Source of the DNA: Piromyces finnis finn | Lineage: Eukaryota; Fungi; Neocallimastigomycota | Reading direction: 5' to 3' | Length of the DNA: 64,000 nucleotides | Assembly: GCA_002104945.1 (NCBI GenBank) | Contig: MCFH01000014.1 | Coordinates: 372,001-436,000, forward strand | Part shown: positions 2,244 to 55,024 of the stretch, piece by piece | Numbering within the stretch: the stretch's first letter is position 1 | Layout of the letters: every line of letters begins with the position of its first letter | Program-made: the position numbers and the translations under genes | The notes under the pieces: model-generated | Seen by the model: the letters and a program-made list of their open reading frames with translations, nothing else | What the model was told of the DNA's origin: nothing | Databases searched by the model: none

Positions 2244-5200
2244 CTAGGAAAAGGATACAAATCTTTTATTTATTTATTTAATTTGTGATTTTACATATTG
2301 ATATAATAAATAATAAATAAAAATAATAAAATATATATAAATAAAAATATAAATATAAAATAATATAAAATAATTATTTAAGTTGCATAAAAGTTCAATG
2401 AACTCTGTAATTTGTACTGTGTGGGATTGGTCCCTACCTAATAAATTAAATGAAATAAAAAAGAAAAGTAACATCAGGTATGATAGTGTGGTGTCCACTA
2501 AACTCTCCCTTGAGTTCATAATGTTTTCATTCGAAGAAATACTAACATTGAACCCTGTGTACGGAACACTGAGAATGTTCCTTTGCCATATCAATACGAC
2601 GTCGGCGCTCTTAATTACGCTAGGTGTCTTACTAAATCTATCAAAAAGTAGCTTCATAGAGCTACTAATTATAGAAATTGTTTTAGTAAGAAAAGCCGCG
2701 AGACCCTCTACCTATGGAACATGAGACCCCAATAAACTGTAAAGCTGTTCATTCAAATGTCTTTATTCCGCCTTATCGATTTGTAGCTCATCATAAGCTA
2801 AAGTTCCACCAAGAAGGAACGTAAAAATATAGTTATAAATTGTTTTTCTTACTTCCATTTCAGGGAGTAAGTATGTGATGAATTGATTCTTATATTTATT
2901 GTAAAAAAAGGGTAAAAGATCGTCAAGAAAGCAAAGTGAAGAAGTTCTGTATTCAGAGAATGCAGAACATTCTAATATCCAATGGTAAAAAGATTGTTCG
3001 TCATATCCGCAACATGGACAGACAAGAGGGCAGTCAGGAGTAACTCTATTACTGGCAATAGCAATTCGGGTAGTGTATTCATAACTGCATCGAATACGAA
3101 TAATCCAGATAATTCCTAAATTTAAGTGAGGTTTGTTGAGACCGATAGGCATTAGGCGATTTGAATTAAGGAATTTGTTGTTAGTATATCTGAGGGCTTT
3201 ACTTCCATTATTTAGGCTACTATTATTCCAATAATATTCTCTAATATCTTTAGTACTTTTAATATTTATTTCCATAAGCTTCTTATGAAGTGAACAAGAT
3301 TCTTTGGCCCAAGAGTAATGAGACATGGGAGGAATAGATCAGACGAGATCTTTAATAATACAATTTGATTTTCTCCATTTAACAAAGCATTTCACTTGTT
3401 GCGCAGCACAAATACCTGAAAGGGTAGGAATCTTCATATCTCTTGTAAGGGCATACAGACTAATAAATGAATTTCGTTCAAAAACAAAATCTTTGTTATT
3501 AAGACTTTTATTGTGGAAGCTATTGACACTCCATAAAACAGCAGTATTGATAAGAGATTGGACTCTTCTAGTTCTATTTTTGTTGGAACCAAGTAAAGGA
3601 GCATAATAAGAGACTTTGCTTAAAATATAGGAATGAATATTACTATATTTTTTAAGCCAATAGGAACACAGTTGTTAGTGAGGAAGCTCTTAAAAGAGAA
3701 TAAAGATTTCTGAACTTTTTTGTACATATTAGACAAAATAGGAGTCAGAGAAAGTTTTTCGTCGAATGGGATTCCAAGATAAGTATAGCAAGAAACCTTT
3801 GGAATCGAGTATATACTGATGTAAAATGTTGGGTCGACATAACTAAGGGATCTATTAAAGTTGATAGGCTTAACAACAATAGTTGCACATTTATTTATTC
3901 CGAAAGGCATTTCATTTAAATTAGCCCAATCAAGGACTAGATTGAGCATCTTTTGAAGGTTCTTCTTGCTAGGAGCAATCAGAACAACGTCATCGGCGAA
4001 AAGGCCACCACAGCAACATTTATTTCCTAAGCTAACTCCAAGCCTTTCACATTTACTTAAAATATCATTGATGAAGAGATTAAATAGAATAGGAGAAAGA
4101 GGACATCCTTGTCTTACACCACGATTGATAGGGAATTCATTAGAAAGCATATCCAAGAAACGTGCACGAGCTTTTGAGGTAGAGTAGAGATTATTGAGAA
4201 AATCAAAACACTTACTACGTATACCTAATTTATATAGCTTTGTAAGGATATTAAGAATAGGAACTGAGTCGTATGCTTTTTTAAGGTCTAGAAAAGCAAC
4301 ATAAGTGGCGTTTCCTTTAAATTTTCTTCTTTGACAGATTTCTCTATGGAAATAAATAAGCTAATGCATTCTTCTTTAATGCGAAAACCAAATTGCTCAG
4401 GTCTTATAAAATTATGAGAAAGAGCATACTTTGAAATTCTATCAGTTACAATTTTTGAAATGATTTTATGACCTACGTTGATGAGAGAAATACCACGATA
4501 ATTATTGCAATCTGAAAGATCGCCTTTCTTTGAAAAAGAAACAATGGAAGCAGAGTTCCATTTCAAAGGAAAGGATCCATTCCAAATTTTATTGAAAATT
4601 AATTTAAGACAATTTCCGGCAGACTTATGTTCTTTTTCCAGTTCTTCATTACAAAAGAAAGCTTTGAAGAATTCAATTGGGATACCATCGGGACCTGGAG
4701 CCTTATTATTCTTCATTGACAGAACAATATTTCTAATTTCCTCAATAGAAATGGGATCATTAATATCCCATGCTATTTGATTGATATGATTGAATTGGAA
4801 GACTCTCTCCCAGTAACTCCGATTTAAGCTATGATTTGTAACATCAGATGCAAGATTTTCATAATGTTCAGCCCGACGTTTTAATTGTTCTTGAGGAGTA
4901 AATAAATCCTTGCCATTCTTGTCCTTAAGAGTTGAAACATGAGAGGATGAATAACTTGGTCTGGCAAGTTTTTTAAGGCCTTTCCAACCTTGTCTAAAGC
5001 TTTTATCAATAAAATGTTTACCGATAGAAACAATATTAGCTTTATAGAGATTGGATCTGAATTTACTCTTAACCTTTTTGATAGTATTACATAAATTTTG
5101 GTATATGGAGAACTGGTTAAGATAATTATCCATGTCAACACAATCTGAAAGGGGTTTAATATTTTTGTAAGCCATAGAACTTTAGGATTAGCACGTCTAT

Positions 5201-45051: not shown

Positions 45052-47606
45052 TTATAAATTTAATTGTTCTTTGAATAATTCTTGAGCGTTACTGTTGACA
45101 AGATCAGCAGCACTCTTAATACCACACCATCCTCCAGCTGGTCTGGTAGCATCGTTTTCATACTTTTCTTCGTATCCGATAACACCATTTTCGAGGATGT
45201 AATCTAATTTATCAGATTCACAGCATGGTAAACCAAAGTCTTCAGCCCAGCATTTCTTGTTCTTAATAATACCACACCATTCCTTTGTGTCCTTAGTAAC
45301 ACCCCACCATCCACTTTCATCAATGTATTCAACAATACTTTCACCATTGTTACAGCATCTGTAACCAAGTTCTTCACTCCAACAAACCTTTTCTTCTTCT
45401 TCTTCAATAGCTTCAGCATTAGTAGCCCAAGCAAGAGGTGGATTTAACTTAATAGTCTTAGCTTCTGAGTCGCCCTTTTCAAAGCTAACCCAAGCAACTA
45501 AACGATCCTTACCTCTCTTTTCGAAAGCAATTTTGCTTTCATTCTTGTTCTTGTAAGCATTTTGTGGAAGAGTAATTGGAATCTTACAATCCTTTTCAAT
45601 AGACTTTGGTGAAATCTTAATAGCAGTAACATAATCACCTTCAATAACAGCAGACTTTTCAATATCACAGTAAGTAATTCTGTTGTATCTATCAAGATAT
45701 AATTGGGCTTGATCATCAAGCTTTAATGAAGTAACTGGCCAGTTTACAAATTTGGTGTATTTTTCAAGAACAGCATTACTCCATTTTTGAAGTAAACTTT
45801 CCTTTTCTTCAAGATCGTGACTACGAAGGTTAATTTGATGGAATTGGTGAGCTTCATTTCTTAAGCTTACCATTAAGTTAAGAGTACGGTCAACTTCATT
45901 GTTAATGAATCTTTCCCAAGTTGATTCACCAATTTCATCTTCGTATATAAGGTTGTAAATGTAAGTGTTTTCTTCAACAGTACTACTAGTGTAGTAAACT
46001 TCAGTTGGAGTACGTGGAATAATTGGGAATCCTTCATAGTTGCTGCTTTCCATTGTAGTAAAGAATGGTAAGTATGGGTTTTCTTGGTTAATAAGAGTTG
46101 GACGAGATAAATCACCAGTACCAGATTCAATACCGTACTTCTTAAAAACGTTGAGAGCATCAGCATTTCTTAAACCAGAAATTTGTGGAGTAACAATAGA
46201 TTTTCCGGAATAGTATGGTTTGTCATAGATATTTAAAAGCTTAGCCATTTCAATGTTAGTTTTGATTTCATTTTCAACATCAAAAGTAGTAGCTTCATCT
46301 AAGTTTTCGTGAGTAAAAGTGTGAGAAGACCAGAAGAAATTCTTACTGTTTTCTTCTTTATCGAAATAGGCAAATAAACTATCATTTTCAAGGAATTCCT
46401 TATCATATGAAAGAGTGTAGTTACCTTCTGGCCATCTGCTAACACCCTTTCCTGGAACTTTAACGTATTCAATATCACAATATCTTTCACCATCAACTTG
46501 AAGAGCAATAGCTGGATTAATGACAGCAAGAACACCATTACCATTGAATGCAATTTCACATTTAATAGATGAACCTTCTGGAAGCTTGTTAACAACAGTT
46601 TCTTGCCAGTTCTTTAAAATTTCGAAATCTTCAACAGTAGAACGGTAAGAGTTGTAGGTACTTTCTAATTCATTGGTTTCGTAATTTAAGAGACCAGTGG
46701 AAAGGAAAACATCATCGATATGTGGAGTAAAAGTAACACGTCTTTCACCAGCATATAATGAACGGGTAACCCATGAAATCCATAAGTGATTTAACATAAC
46801 ACTGTTAATAGACCAATCACCAAATGCAATATAGAAAGATAATCTTTCACCATCATCATTTTTAATGTAGGCAGCAACAACAGATTCTTCCTTAATTTCT
46901 TCATTTGGCTTTAAAGTAATGATTGGGGTTGCAATTTTATCATTTTCAATCTTACCTGGAACATGGTATAAACTATTAAGATAGTAAAATAAAATTTTTT
47001 ATTTAAAATAAAATTTATAATTTAATAATTTATTACAAACAAGTATACTCTATAATATTTTTTTAAATATACTTACCCTCTAGTATCAAGAGTAGCTGTA
47101 GATTTAACACCAGCTTCATTGAATATGGATTTAGCAACATCATTATCAGCCATAACCATTTCTTGAGTACTAGAAACACCCCAAATACTTGGATCAAAAA
47201 TAGATGTACCGAAATTAATACTTGGAGTATCATCAAGAGCTACAATTCTTACACCATATTTCTTTTGGTATTCATAAAGATAATCCCATTGCTTACTAGT
47301 TAAAATACTGTTCCATAATCCAGTATCTTCGAAATAAACTGTAAGATCACCATTACCAAGGACAACACCATAGTATTTTGGTTGGTTATCTTCAGTGTAT
47401 AATGGTAAGTCACCTTTAAGTGGGTTTTTATAATTGTATTCTAAATAATCATATTCAATGGAGTATGATTGAAGTGATTTTATTATTGAATCTGGGAAAC
47501 TTGTGGACAAAACTAAAAGTTTCATTCCAAGTTGGACTTCTGTTGCAAGACATCCAACAATAAAAGTAATAAAAGTTAACAAAATAGATTTATTTATAAA
47601 GTTCAT
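45052..47606 (-). CDS. Secreted Agd3/CE18-like polysaccharide deacetylase with two C-terminal fungal dockerins
   Basis: Signal peptide MNFINKSILLTFITFIVGCLA; one intron near 46975-47075 (RG/LYHVPG); YAGERRVTFTPHIDDVFL, FFWSSHTFTHENL, IVTPQISGL, IIPRTPTEVYY, AHQFHQINL; then two CW..xGYxCC...WCGI modules. Confidence 0.85.
45118..45384 (-). other. Tandem non-catalytic dockerin (CBM10-like) domains
   Basis: CWSEELGYRCC...WWGV..TKEWCGI (45268-45384) and CWAEDFGLPCC...GGWCGI (45118-45252). Confidence 0.85.
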
Positions 47607-50519
47607 TTTGATTTTTATTTTAATTAACAAGGAAATAAATATGTTATTTTTTGTATTTTATTTTTTTTTTTTTTTTTGATTTATTTGTGTTGAATTTTTT
47701 TTTTTTTTTTGTTAATAAATAATTGTTATATATATATATTATTTTATATTATATTATTGTTGTATTATAGTAATAGTATATTATAAATACTAAAACTATT
47801 CTTTTTATTAATACACAATAAGTAATTATAATGTCAACTTTTTTTTTAAAAAAATAAAAAAAAAGAAATTTATATATATAATTTAACAAAATTTTAAAAG
47901 TTTAAAATATGTTGAGAAATACTGCTTCTTTTATATGAATATTAATTTTTATATTCAATGATATATAAAATTAATAAATAATAAAATAAAGAAAAAAAAG
48001 CTTATTTATTAAGGAAGATTAGTGTTATTAAAAAAGTATATATATTTAACCCTATATACCATGTTATTTATTGATAATAAATTTAAGGATTAAGTAGAAT
48101 AGAAACGTTTAAAAGAAATAGTATATATCAATAATAAATTAATAATATAAATATTATTCTATTCTAATATATAATAATTTAATACAATAATAAATAAATT
48201 AAACAAGAGAATACGAAAAAACAAAAGAATTATTAAAATATAATGAATATAATAGGAAATTTTAATTTATTTTATAATAAATTAAATTAAATAATAAAAT
48301 ATTAATTTAGGTTATACAAAAATATAAATGAAAAAATTAATGTAATTTAATATATTTGAATATATTTATTTAATATATATTCATATATTATTCAAACATT
48401 TAAATTCTGAGATTTACAATATTAAATAGTATTAAAGTTTATATATATGAAATAAATTTCAACCTAAATAATATATTTTTTAATTATAAATCAATATAAA
48501 TCAATGAAATAAATAATTTCTACAATATATAAATAATATATAAAATCGAAAAAGATAATTAAATTTATAATATTAATATATTAGTTAATTAATAAATATA
48601 TAATTTCAATATAAAACAATAAAATTAGTATATTAATATCATTTCATTTTCAATATAAAATTTAATAAATTAATTTTTTTAAAGATATTGAAATAAACTT
48701 TTATTAATATATTATTATACAAAGAAATAAATTAAATTTTTATAATAAAATAATAACAATAAATTAAATATATTAATAAATTAATACATATAATAAACTA
48801 ATAATAATTTACATAGCATAATATTAATAAACAATAGTAAAGATAATCATTCTAAATTTTTTATACTATGGATTCAAGCGGGTTTCAATAGGCATGGTAA
48901 AATTATACTACCATTTTTAAATATTTCCTTAACGAAATGGCAAAGTCGATGTATTGGAATTTAATATTTAAGTATTTATTTTTTTTTCATTATTCATCCA
49001 TTTATATTTAAAATTAATTCATTATTTATTCGCTATATGGTAAAGATTAAAATAAGTCCTAGTGTATTAATAAACTTTTAACAAAGAATATCTTATCATA
49101 TGTATTAATTCTATTATAATTATAATGAATGGATATGCTATTCCTATTATTGCTGTTGCTATATAGAGTTCATTAATTGTATATATACTTTTCTTTTATT
49201 ATAAAGATTATTAGAAAGGGCTACTTTTTTAGTGGTAAAAAATAACAACAACTAAAATTGCTTAACATTTCTTCTTACTAATTTTTACTTCTTACAGCAA
49301 CAATAAGCAATAAAATTTTAATTTAAAGTACAATATATAAAGTTAATGTATTGGCATCTATTGAAATATATTAAATAATATAAAAACACAAGAACAATAT
49401 TTCATGCTTTGGAATGTTGAACGGAAGGTGTGTGTAGCGAAAGAATTAATAAAAGTAGAATAATTTTACTATTATATTATATTGAAAATAATAATAATTA
49501 AAGTTTAATTTTAAATTAAAAATAAATTTTATTTTATATAAAATAAATTAAAATTTTATATTAAATCAAAATATTCTTCAAAAAAAAATGAATGATTTTT
49601 TTTAAAAAAATGAAAAAGTAAAATTTCTATTTAATTTTTATATATTAATTTACGGCAAAAAAAAACCAAAAAAAAAAAAAAGACAAAAGTTTGCCATAAC
49701 AAAAATATATTTTATAAAAGAGAAACTCATTTAGTTTCTAATAATAATAATAATAGAGTTTTATGTTAACTAAATAAAAATAAAAAGATTATCTGAATAT
49801 TTTTAATCCCTATTTTATATTTTATTAATATGACATCATAATACATTCAAAATAATTAAAGTTTACTTTTTATCAAAATTCATGGCTTTTTCTTTCTATA
49901 CATTTTTTGTTTGTACAACAATAAAAAATACTATTTTCCTAACCTTTTAAATGCCTCCATTTTATATACCTCTATTTTTTTATTAATTAAAATTTTTTTG
50001 AATAACAATAATTATACCTGTGTTACCTAAATTATTATCCAATAATAAACAAGAAAAAAAAAAAGTAAATTGAAGAAATTTATATATATTTAAAAAAGTT
50101 CGATAATTTATTTGGAAGGTCGTTAATATATATTTCATTTGTAGGCCTAAAGTAACACTTTTTAATCAACACAATAGAAATAATAATAAATAAAATAATT
50201 GTTTATACTTATTTAATATAAATTCCTCTTGTGTTTTTAAAAAGAAGCTGATAATTTATAATTTCATTGATTTATCCTTTTTTTTTTTTTTGGATTTTTA
50301 TTATATAAATAGAGTTTCTATATTCTTAACACTTCTTTTCTTTTATATTCACTATTTTCATCACAAAATTCATAACTGAAGAAGTTACTATCAGTAGAAC
50401 AATGATAAGTATTTATTATTATTTATGTATACTTCATGTACTTATGCATTACTAATTAATTTAATCCAATATTGGATCATATGAAATCACTTTATTATAA
50501 ATTATTACATAGTTAGTTC

Positions 50520-51800
50520 TGCAATTTTTTTTTCTGTTCAATATTAATAAAAGATTTTTTCTTCGTATCAGCAAAAACAGATGGCATCAGAAAATTAATT
50601 ATTATTATTATTAATAATCAAATTTATAGTATAACTGAAAACTTTTCAGTAGAATTTATAAGAGAAATTGAAGGTAATTTCCATTTAATATTGGATTGCA
50701 AATTTATTAATAATACTTTTATCCCTTTTGATATTTTATACCGTGAATTGGATTTAAGAAGTTACTCTTACAAAGAAAGAATAAACATTCTTAATTCTTT
50801 AGATTACCTTAAATTTGAAAAATTATAGTTAAAAAAGTTATAAAATGCTGTAAAATTTTTTTCAAGATATTCAAACATTTGTATCATCGGAATTAGAAAA
50901 TACCACACCAAACGATGGTATTGTCATAACCAGCGGAGCATCAACCTATTTTGAAAATGCTAAAGCTTATAAAATTAAAACTATTTACACAGTAGATATC
51001 GAGTTTAATGGACGCTATTTTTTAGCTAGGGAGCATAGAATGAATATATCTTTTAAATTTATCAGTAGAAAAATATAAAAATATATGTATAATAAGTTTA
51101 AAGTACAAAATCACAAAACTACAAACCCTATTGAAAAGTATTATTATAGAAAGAAAATAGAAATTATAGAAGGCGTACCATGCAACAAAAAAGTAGTTAA
51201 ATATTATCATATTAAAAATAAAAAAATAAATTTTATTATAGAGTATGATTTAGATAATAAAAAATATATTAATTTTTGCAAAGATAAAATCAAATAGCAT
51301 AAAAATATTTAATAGTGTTTTATTGGTTTCCTATCAAAAAATCAATATTGATATTTTTTCACCTAAATCCAATGTTTTAATGCGTAAATACCACAATATA
51401 ATAAAACAAAATATTTTAAATGAATTTAGAGGAACTTTATTAGATATCGGTACAGGCAATGGTGGTGATATACACAAGTGGAATCATTTCCCGTAAGATC
51501 GTTTGTGTTGAACCAAACCATGAAAAATTAAAAATTTAAATAAAAGAATTTCAAATTCAGAAATTAAAAATAGAATCAAAATTATCCCGAATAATATTCA
51601 AGAAGAGATGTTAAATGATCATTTTGATATTACCACATGTTTTTTTGCATTAAATGGTATGTCTTATACCGACATAGCATAAACGATAAAAAATATCAAA
51701 AATTGTATAAGAAAAACATTTATTGAATTATTTTTCGATTCTTCAATTTAGTGAAAATATAACTTCAACATCACTAATTTATCGAAAATGTATTATTAAT
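50520..51800 (+). pseudogene. Virus-type mRNA capping enzyme (guanylyltransferase + guanine-N7 methyltransferase)
   Basis: FVSAKTDGIRK (KTDG 50574-50585), LILDCK, FIPFDIL, RINIL, PNDGIVI (50914), YKIKTIYTVD (50968-50997), FCKDK, then MRKYHNIIK (51380), LLDIGTGNGGDIHKW (DIGTGNGGD 51443-51469), IVCVEPN, FDITTCFFALN. Several stops and frameshifts. Confidence 0.9.
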
Positions 51801-52321
51801 GAAAATAATAAAATTATAAATACAACCGATAAATTATCATTAACCTATCTGTTAAGTTGCCTTAGATATACGTATGGTGAATGCGATAATATAATGTATG
51901 TAAATATTCTTCTTTTCTTAAAGGCATTGAATTTTCAAATAATATTCCTTAAAGAAAAAAGAAAGACAATTAAGGAAAATATAGTAAAATATATAATTAT
52001 TATTACTTTTATAATTATTATAATTATTTTTATTATTATAATCATTATTATTTCATCATTTATAATATTTAAGATTTATTTCAATAAAAGGATTTATATA
52101 AAGATTTTTATTATTTAAAACATATATATATATATATATTAAAAAGAAAATGTAAAAAAAAAAAGAAATCTTTAGAAAATATAATAAAATAAATTAAAAA
52201 GATTATTTAATATTAAAAGTACCAATTTAAATTCAAAGGGTAAATCAAATAAAAAAGTGAAGTTAAATTTCAATTCAAGTATACGTTTTCATTTGGGAAT
52301 TAATAGTTCACTGTTGTTAAG

Positions 52322-53010
52322 ATGTATGAATTAATTCATACTTTCGATTTCAGTGAAAACCCTGAACTGAAAAATAAAATATTGAAAATATTTCTCAAAA
52401 ATATACCTGTTTTACCCATAAATATGAGACTTTCAATTATGGATTTCAACAATATCATAATTCATAATAGTATAACATCCATGTATATAAGACTGTTAGA
52501 TTTAAATCATCAGTTTCAAAGTAACACCAATATTATTTCGTATGGTGGATATGGATTAAAAGTATTCAATCTATATAAAAAAATTCTTGGAATTTATAGT
52601 TCCACCGATACTACGGAAAATTCTGATAAAAATTTTATTAAACAAAGATTATCGGGAAAAACGGATTTTTAAAAGTATGTGTATAGTCAAAAGACAAAAT
52701 TTTTGTCTTAGTAGTGTTATTGTGCCAAATATAAATATTCCCTTGGATAAAATATTGATATCAAAAAAATTTATAGATCAATTAATTCCCCATGGATATA
52801 AGCCAAATGACTATGTAATTATTAATAGACAACCTACACTCCAAACTACTTCTATATTATCTGTTCGCTCCTTTCTAGCAGTCGGACCATCCAAATTAAT
52901 CCTCTAATAGCCAGCGTTTTTCAAGCTGATTTTGACGAGAATGAAATGAATTTTTTTGGCTGCTGGGAGAAGAATCTAAAAAAGAATTAATCCTGTTGTT
53001 TTCATGCTAT
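52322..53010 (+). pseudogene. Reduced multisubunit RNA polymerase largest-subunit (beta-prime/Rpb1-type) fragment
   Basis: IPVLPINMRLS (region B), KQRLSGKT / KRQNFCLSSVIVPN (region C), YVIINRQPTLQTTSI, then after a frameshift TIQINPLIASVFQADFDENEMN (52922-52951; decayed NADFDGDEMN) and LGEESKKEL. Confidence 0.9.
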
Positions 53011-53543
53011 TTAGTGCAAAAGCCATTTCGGTTCGAAAGTTCATTAACTAAATTAAATCGTTGGTGGTAGAAGTTCCACATCCTATTTATGAATACAATG
53101 AATTTAAAAATTCTAAATGTTTTTGCAAGGCCCGAGAACTTGCTTGTGAACTTGACTTTACTATTCAATGGTAGTAAAATTATATTCATTTTATTTATTT
53201 CACGATATTAAAATCATTTTAAAAGATAGGATTCTATTATATTAAATATATATAATTACAGATAAATTATATAAAGTTTATTTATGTATAATATATATGT
53301 ATAATCTCTTTCTATATCATTTTTAATTCATAACGTTCAATACAAGATGTATTAATTCTACATTTTAAGTTTAATGAAATTTAAAATTTAAAAATTATAA
53401 AAATTTTTATTGATTAAAAATCATTAAAATTTAAAATTTAGAAAGTTTGAGATTGATAAATCGAAAATAATTCTCAATAGTAGTACCATTCTTTTTTATT
53501 AAATAATTTATACTAAGCTGAGCTTTTACAATTGTTTTAATTC

Positions 53544-54446: not shown

Positions 54447-55024
54447 TAACTCCCTTACATATAGCCTTATTTTTTTATAATAAAGATATTATAGATATAT
54501 AAATTAGGTATGGAGCTAAGATAAATATAAGAAATAGCATAGGAGCTACGCCAATACTTAAATTATGTGAGGTTTATTGGTATGATAATATTAATATGGA
54601 AGAAGTTTTAAAATTATTTATTAATTATGGTACTAATATTTATATAAAGGATAACGATAAAAACACCGCATTATATTATGCTGTTAGAGGATTTAAAGAA
54701 AAGGCAATAGACTATTTATTGAAAAATAATTTTGATGTTAATATGCAAAATATCAATGGTGATACACCATTACATATGGCTTGTAAAGATATAAGGGGTG
54801 ATGGAGAAATGATGCAATATTTAGTAGAAAGAGGAGCGGATGTCAACATAATCAATAATAAAAGTGAGACTCCCTTGTTTTGTTTATGTAACTGTACTTA
54901 TAAAGATGAAGGTATGCCATTATTAGTAGAAAGTGGAGCAGATATAAATATAGCAAATAATAAAGGTGAAACACCATTGTTAATATCTTGTAAATATGGA
55001 AAAGAAGATTTATCTAAGAAATAA
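54447..55024 (+). pseudogene. Ankyrin-repeat gene, probably disrupted
   Basis: TPLHIAL, GATPIL, NTALYYA, GDTPLHMAC, ETPLF, GETPLLISC; in-frame TAA at 54500-54502 and an abrupt stop mid-repeat at 55024. Confidence 0.75.

Follow-up and report, generated by a model that had tools for sequence, protein, structure and literature searches.

Within an AT-rich stretch of eukaryotic DNA whose genes are split by introns, the genome assembly of the anaerobic gut fungus Piromyces finnis carries a short block of broken, intronless genes for an mRNA capping enzyme and an RNA polymerase, and the question is what kind of element left them there. The window, i.e. the whole stretch analysed here, comprises 64,000 nucleotides (contig MCFH01000014.1, assembly GCA_002104945.1, positions 372,001 to 436,000 of the forward strand), and all coordinates below refer to it. 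The block (50544-53174, + strand) consists of three co-oriented intronless pseudogene pieces, namely a capping enzyme, the N-terminal half of the largest RNA polymerase subunit (RP1n) and a uracil-DNA glycosylase (UDG). We hold with high confidence that it is the decayed, non-functional remnant of a fundsalphavirus of the Piromyces type, a Pithovirus-related member of the Nucleocytoviricota. The block is pseudogenised, lies inside 64 kb of contig carrying fungal genes and is likely integrated in the nuclear genome of the fungus.

A three-gene relic

The block is made up of the following parts:

50544-51911, + strand: pseudogene of an mRNA capping enzyme, with guanylyltransferase, OB and N7-methyltransferase parts, from frameshift-aware alignment and weak Pfam matches
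51912-52205, no strand: AT-rich spacer, 294 bp, GC 10.9%, from base composition; left junction bridged by a short-read contig
52206-52989, + strand: RP1n pseudogene (RNA polymerase largest subunit, N-half), from frameshift-aware alignment and Pfam
52995-53174, + strand: UDG pseudogene, C-terminal piece, from frameshift-aware alignment; junction bridged by a short-read contig

A first-pass annotation, made from the sequence alone, had recognised two co-oriented intronless pseudogenes, a guanylyltransferase-methyltransferase (GTase-MTase) capping enzyme and a beta'-type RNA polymerase, and both were confirmed by frameshift-aware alignment and Pfam. The gap between them, put at about 0.5 kb, is actually 294 bp, and what had been described as a two-gene cassette does contain both genes, together with a third, the UDG, that had been missed.

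The GC content of the three gene pieces (22-33%) stands out from that of the flanks (11-17%). The spacer resembles the right flank in composition and occupies the place where the C-terminus of the capping enzyme, the intergenic DNA and RP1n codons 1-110 would be expected. RP1n and UDG are joined directly, with no spacer, at a fusion point produced by deletion. Profiles of the capping, RP1n and UDG families detected no additional piece elsewhere in the 64-kb window, and no terminal inverted repeat around the block was convincing, the element ends being lost here.

Identity of the element

[quoted passage not shown] Polymerase copies number 26 in Neocallimastix californiae, six in P. finnis, four each in Anaeromyces robustus and Piromyces sp. 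E2 and one in Pecoramyces; the shared genes are a family-B DNA polymerase (PolB), D5, an SNF2 helicase, an S-adenosylmethionine (SAM) methyltransferase, RPB2, RPB5 and an RPB1 split into RP1n and RP1c (PMC7017919). In Fig. S2 of that paper, MCFH01000083.1 (one copy) and MCFH01000089.1 (two copies) are drawn as UDG-RP1n-AdoMet_MTase-RPB2...D5-POL-RP1c, and the order found in the window, methyltransferase-RP1n-UDG, is that of these three P. finnis maps read backwards. The Neocallimastix copies are drawn with another gene order (PMC7017919).

Contigs of 168,386, 127,315, 246,453 and 68,043 bp carry the relatives P0003, P0004, P0024 and P0007, respectively. These four sizes equal those of the scaffolds MCFH01000083.1, MCFH01000089.1, MCFH01000069.1 and KZ151082.1, which are mapped with RP1n and POL and all appear under fundsalphaviruses in the RPB1 tree (PMC7017919). 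It is mainly because the contigs of the relatives have the same lengths as mapped scaffolds, and because the window order is the map reversed, that we identify the block as a fundsalphavirus relic. The block further shares with the fundsalphaviruses proteins at 83-88% identity, the UDG-RP1n-methyltransferase order, the host group, and an endogenous and partly decayed state. It differs in having no DNA polymerase, the probe used in PMC7017919, so that screen would have missed it; RP1c is not in the window. The relic adds a decayed copy to an element family known since 2020, of which intact copies exist elsewhere. The name "fundsalphavirus" was met in one paper only, and the search, outside which most subscription papers lay, turned up no work that treats these elements as active or as lacking a capsid.

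Capping enzyme

The capping pseudogene aligns to amino acids (aa) 300-748 of the intact 810-aa protein P0027 at 78% identity, with 8 frameshifts and 1 stop. It retains the motifs KTDG, DGIVI, YKIK and DIGTGNGGD and has lost, by deletion, the N-terminal triphosphatase region and the last 62 aa. Pfam recognised mRNA_cap_enzyme and mRNA_G-N7_MeTrfase, both weakly, and in a search of 5.8 billion proteins the capping and RP1n pieces found matches at E=5e-71 and 5e-36, far beyond chance. Three of 467 candidates were confirmed as relatives of the capping piece, two of them full length (810 and 832 aa). The full-length relatives align end to end with capping enzymes from metagenome-assembled genomes (MAGs) of giant viruses, and the top IMG/VR matches are giant-virus MAG contigs; a search of a plasmid collection gave no capping-enzyme match.

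In the intact relatives, ExE-type motifs mark either end of the N-terminal domain, which we take to point to a tunnel triphosphatase. Together with colinearity, these motifs suggest that the domain is a predicted triphosphatase of this type; an AlphaFold model (4-row alignment) had a predicted local distance difference test score (pLDDT) of 35.5, too low for a fold search. This three-domain architecture, with its predicted triphosphatase, is common to NCLDVs and to the linear plasmids (virus-like elements, VLEs) of pGKL2 type, and so does not discriminate between them. To judge by the alignments, the "SAM methyltransferase" of PMC7017919 is the whole 810-832-aa capping enzyme, with a guanylyltransferase and the predicted triphosphatase in front.

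RNA polymerase subunit and its intact relatives

The RP1n pseudogene aligns to aa 111-372 of the 726-aa P0004 at 83% identity, with 4 frameshifts and 2 stops, and is 88% identical to P0003. The NRQPTL motif is intact, the catalytic DFDGD is changed to DFDEN, and Pfam RNA_pol_Rpb1_2 matches at E=1.1e-6. Among 796 candidates there were 23 relatives, nine with an organism name, in every case a gut fungus (Piromyces finnis, Piromyces sp. E2, Neocallimastix or Orpsp1), and the remainder from metagenome sources. Intact RP1n proteins (712-748 aa) contain Rpb1 domains 1-5 and QADFDGDE and end about 60-78 aa past the bridge-helix motif; one of them, P0005, shows Rpb1_1 with the N-terminal zinc-clamp motif CxxC..CxGH at aa 41 and no Rpb2 domain. 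By this domain content, intact RP1n is a stand-alone, split largest subunit that keeps its clamp.

One cluster of relatives has 75 members, of which 13 full-length proteins were compared and found to be 97.1-99.9% identical with DFDGD intact; 12 of these 13 are named Neocallimastix and are spread over many different contigs. For intact RP1n and for intact capping enzyme alike, a longest contig of 42,490 bp is recorded. Gut-fungal assemblies and rumen metagenomes had been suggested as places to look for intact copies, and full-length RP1n, capping enzyme and UDG proteins were indeed found there. A scan of JGI metagenomes with RP1n confirmed 4 of 96 matches, all on gene-sized contigs (1.9-2.6 kb) without neighbours; none of 4 pattern matches in IMG/VR was confirmed, and GTDB yielded only archaeal A' at 21-26% identity. 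Among the intact loci L001-L004, the ratio of nonsynonymous to synonymous substitution rates (dN/dS) was 0.11-0.33 in five of the six pairs, the remaining pair being identical. The contigs of L001-L004 (1.9-2.6 kb) extend little beyond the RP1n open reading frame (ORF) and would fit assembled transcripts.

Uracil-DNA glycosylase

The UDG piece aligns to aa 149-207 of the 207-aa P0226 at 86% identity, with 1 internal stop and the native stop kept. Eleven of 12 candidates lie at 78-86% identity, one of them a named P. finnis "DNA glycosylase", and an intact family member matches E. coli UNG in the PDB at E=5e-22. The 60-aa piece itself had no match in Pfam or the PDB, nor had the intact P0225 and P0226 in Pfam at E 0.1. 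Where E. coli UNG has GQDPY and HPS, the intact proteins P0222, P0225 and P0226 have GDKPY/GDIPY and HPI. These altered motifs may mean that glycosylase activity is changed, or that the protein may act as a replication factor, a role that we presume by analogy with poxvirus D4.

Trees and wider relatives

In a first FastTree analysis (10 gut-fungal rows and 133 of 143 other representatives, the 10 under 600 aa having been dropped), the gut rows formed one clade (support 100) nested in a group of 34 rows (95), mostly proteins of 620-810 aa, among them named proteins of Sphagnum, Gaertneriomyces, Boothiomyces and Geranomyces. In a second (116 rows), gut and compact RP1n proteins came together (30 rows, 100), separate from the 6 rows of archaeal origin and from most of those from IMG/VR. 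Within the compact clade, one IMG/VR contig codes for D5, DUF2738, a capping enzyme and DUF5757. In the ESM Atlas, the three best RP1n clusters are 79-100% viral, mostly Nucleocytoviricota, with proteins of 881-989 aa.

The compact clade (P0075, P0079, P0089, P0115, other 620-810-aa relatives and L165 80-12247) occurs in chytrids, Sphagnum and metagenomes, and some of its chytrid members are automatically annotated as host RPB1. These compact proteins likely represent further endogenous relatives beyond those given in the parts of PMC7017919 covered here. Identity to one compact relative is only about 27%, and the gut-fungal branch is long, at 1.2-1.4 changes per site. The Physcomitrium patens "virus" is nested in the fundsalphaviruses and has RP1n, RP1c, RPB2 and UDG (PMC7017919).

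The Mycodnaviridae are another group of Nucleocytoviricota that occur integrated in the genomes of zoosporic fungi, and they too have a capping enzyme, D5 and PolB, but differ in being about 350 kb long, capsid-encoding and placed near Imitervirales/Algavirales (PMC13533422). The same source calls earlier fungal endogenous viral elements distinct clades, and gut fungi are unnamed in the passages of it covered; nor are they named in PMC12247965, as far as a term search of it goes. Egoviruses and polinton-like viruses were also considered and dropped, the passages covered giving no fungal or RNA polymerase link (10.1101/2024.03.23.586382, 10.64898/2026.06.19.733378, 10.64898/2026.10.13.758929).

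Decay seen in short reads

The identity of the block, its gene order, its breaks and its internal junctions are direct results of this analysis. In run X1, which may come from the window's own source, short-read contigs with 0 differences to the window have depths of 144-173, similar to other AT-rich contigs of the run; depth here is a value per short-read contig and not a copy number. Such contigs bridge the capping-spacer junction (51879-52072) and the RP1n-UDG junction (52885-53092), so that the mosaic of the block is real in short reads. Contigs of this kind also run across two frameshifts (near 51289 and 52952), the altered DFDEN motif and the stop in the UDG piece, and some breaks are therefore genuine and not assembly errors. 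These observations come from the matching short-read pieces listed, with 1,698 further ones outside that list.

Contigs about 90-96% alike to the window reach depths of 595-694 (about fourfold) and differ from it in length where several of the frameshifts lie; one such deeper-copy contig departs from the window at 52206, continuing 150 bases upstream of the RP1n break. This better-preserved, deeper form would be either a set of nearly identical copies in the nucleus or a free element at low copy number. Where the window differs from the deeper copies, 11 of 34 codons are synonymous against an expected 0.27 under neutrality, the 34 coming from those 40 differences, out of 200 listed, that had the best support (of 39 that were typed, 5 were set aside because they shared a codon with another). 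The block decays about neutrally, whereas the intact loci show a dN/dS of 0.11-0.33. The shortness of the capping and RP1n pieces, both truncated at both ends, is by the alignments mostly the result of deletion, and the relic cannot encode working enzymes.

Origin of the block and alternative explanations

For the route of integration and the lifestyle of the parent element, we infer the following. A single copy of the element, whole or as one long stretch, probably came into the chromosome; once both ends and two internal segments had been lost, 2.6 kb would have remained in the original order and decayed about neutrally. The parent element is predicted to have capped its mRNA with a single triphosphatase-guanylyltransferase-methyltransferase protein, the activities of its enzymes being what we assume from knowledge of the families. 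The gene set of PMC7017919 predicts cytoplasmic transcription by its own split polymerase (RP1n, RP1c and RPB2), and replication with PolB, the D5 primase-helicase and UDG.

Several points weigh against a fundsalphavirus relic integrated in the chromosome. The DNA polymerase that defines the fundsalphaviruses is absent from the window, and the short-read contig pieces listed include neither of the outer junctions with host DNA. The link to the mapped scaffolds consists of equal sizes in bp and species names, not of a sequence comparison of scaffolds, and gene orientation and tree shapes are not visible in the supplement text of PMC7017919 used. The branches of our FastTree trees are long, and none of their rows is a named Pithovirus, poxvirus, VLE or host Rpb1; it is PMC7017919, not these trees, that places the element with Pithovirus. 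In the PDB, the RP1n profile matches cellular Rpb1 best, the fungal chains there having 1,733-1,752 aa, and the estimate of neutral decay carries the selection of differences given above.

The explanation that survives best beside deletion of one integrated copy is that separate viral fragments were patched in at one double-strand break, in the manner of nuclear mitochondrial DNA segments (NUMTs). All three pieces are cut mid-gene, the composition of the spacer is host-like and no other piece of the three genes lies in the 64 kb, as patching would have it; conserved order and window orientation with respect to the P. finnis-type maps (PMC7017919) are not favoured by random patching, and we consider this route unlikely. 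The identity of the element is unchanged whether deletion or patching produced the block.

The first-pass annotation had preferred a different source, the nuclear capture of a cytoplasmic linear plasmid of pGKL2 type (a helper VLE) of a gut fungus, over a giant virus. Helper VLEs and the parent element do share an own capping enzyme, a reduced multisubunit polymerase, AT-richness and a fungal host, and VLEs are known from Mucoromycota, Zoopagomycota and perhaps one chytrid (PMC13348850). The VLE beta' is split after beta'a15 (PMC6211774), as RP1n appears to be, but a split after the bridge helix is common to both and is found likewise in some archaea. What separates them is the polymerase itself: pGKL2 Orf6 is a unique beta-beta' fusion without beta'a1-a10, i.e. 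without most of the clamp (PMC6211774), and intact RP1n stands alone, with a clamp and no Rpb2 domain. Likewise, VLEs use a protein-primed polymerase and terminal repeats; the protein-primed polymerase had been expected with intact copies here too, and the RP1n relatives are instead mapped beside PolB and D5 (PMC7017919), with UDG as a further replication gene. The word "uracil" is absent from PMC6211774 in the parts covered, and in those of PMC13348850 no VLE is recorded in zoosporic phyla except one Kappamyces contig, gut fungi never being named; nor was a convincing terminal inverted repeat seen around the block, whose element ends are lost. The argument from compactness also fails, the pieces being short mostly by deletion, although intact RP1n is itself small. 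Because RP1n is stand-alone with a clamp, UDG is in the block and the family is known with PolB and D5, the block is not of pGKL type, and the capture of such a plasmid is very improbable.

Some fundsalphavirus copies are drawn with chitin-binding ChtBD1 genes (Zancudomyces LSSK01000604.1 and the Neocallimastix maps), and the Zancudomyces copy also with LysM and a GH18 chitinase resembling zymocin alpha (PMC7017919 Fig. S2). Killer VLEs typically carry such cargo, on which the passages covered of PMC7017919 offer no discussion.

Hardly any credence can be given to decayed host genes (Ceg1, Abd1, Rpb1, Ung1) or to a chimeric assembly that took in a free virus, to which the cellular Rpb1 matches and the automatic RPB1 names of chytrid relatives might point: the capping protein is fused (810-832 aa), RP1n is split (about 720 aa), there are no introns and many copies per genome, and the breaks and internal junctions occur in short-read contigs whose depth resembles that of the run's other AT-rich contigs. 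A host origin is ruled out by architecture (a fused GTase-MTase, and a 720-aa RP1n against a host Rpb1 of about 1,700 aa), and the original view of fossil genes from a virus-like element with cytoplasmic-type transcription is upheld.

Neighbouring features

An ankyrin-repeat ORF fragment lies 1.3 kb behind the UDG piece (54503-55024, +), and one P. finnis element copy is mapped with Ank_2 and ChtBD1 beyond UDG (PMC7017919). At 45052-47657 (-), a secreted Agd3-like deacetylase (CBM87 and CE domain) with a C-terminal CBM10 dockerin is likely a cellulosome component, as suits the DNA of an anaerobic gut fungus. At 2385-4228 (-), a broken reverse transcriptase of a long interspersed nuclear element (LINE, non-LTR) shows 71-80% identity to P0220, a metagenome protein that joins a LINE of this family to the C-terminal end of the element's UDG; because of this joint, a LINE of the family was likely inserted into another element copy.

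A possible living element

Many intact, near-identical copies exist and no capsid gene has been reported in gut fungi, so a small element may still be active. It is possible, though on the doubtful side, that the fundsalphavirus is a living, minimal (about 30-45 kb), capsid-less derivative of the Nucleocytoviricota that persists like a cytoplasmic plasmid in rumen fungi and repeatedly seeds the chromosome. Hints in this direction are the 13 near-identical intact RP1n proteins, the 42,490-bp contig, the deeper copies lacking several of the breaks and the zymocin-alpha-like chitinase of the Zancudomyces copy. The trees of the MCP (major capsid protein) and of A32 in PMC7017919 have, in the parts covered, no gut-fungal row, and in the passages covered of PMC13533422, after a search of 2,543 genomes, MCPs are reported from other phyla only; a divergent capsid may have escaped. 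Multiple recent integrations of an ordinary virus with such a divergent capsid explain the same data.

At the least, the present relic brings a small gain in annotation, i.e. that the "SAM methyltransferase" of these elements is a whole capping enzyme, and that polymerase-free relics exist. Besides PolB and D5, a living element would retain a polymerase and a capping enzyme of its own; given its split polymerase and its chitin-binding cargo, the transcription machinery of yeast killer plasmids would then either parallel it or derive from it. If it were indeed free and capsid-less, culturable rumen fungi would harbour a replicon derived from a DNA virus. Such a replicon might connect giant viruses with the killer plasmids of fungi and, where fungi lack genetic tools, would be a candidate vector.

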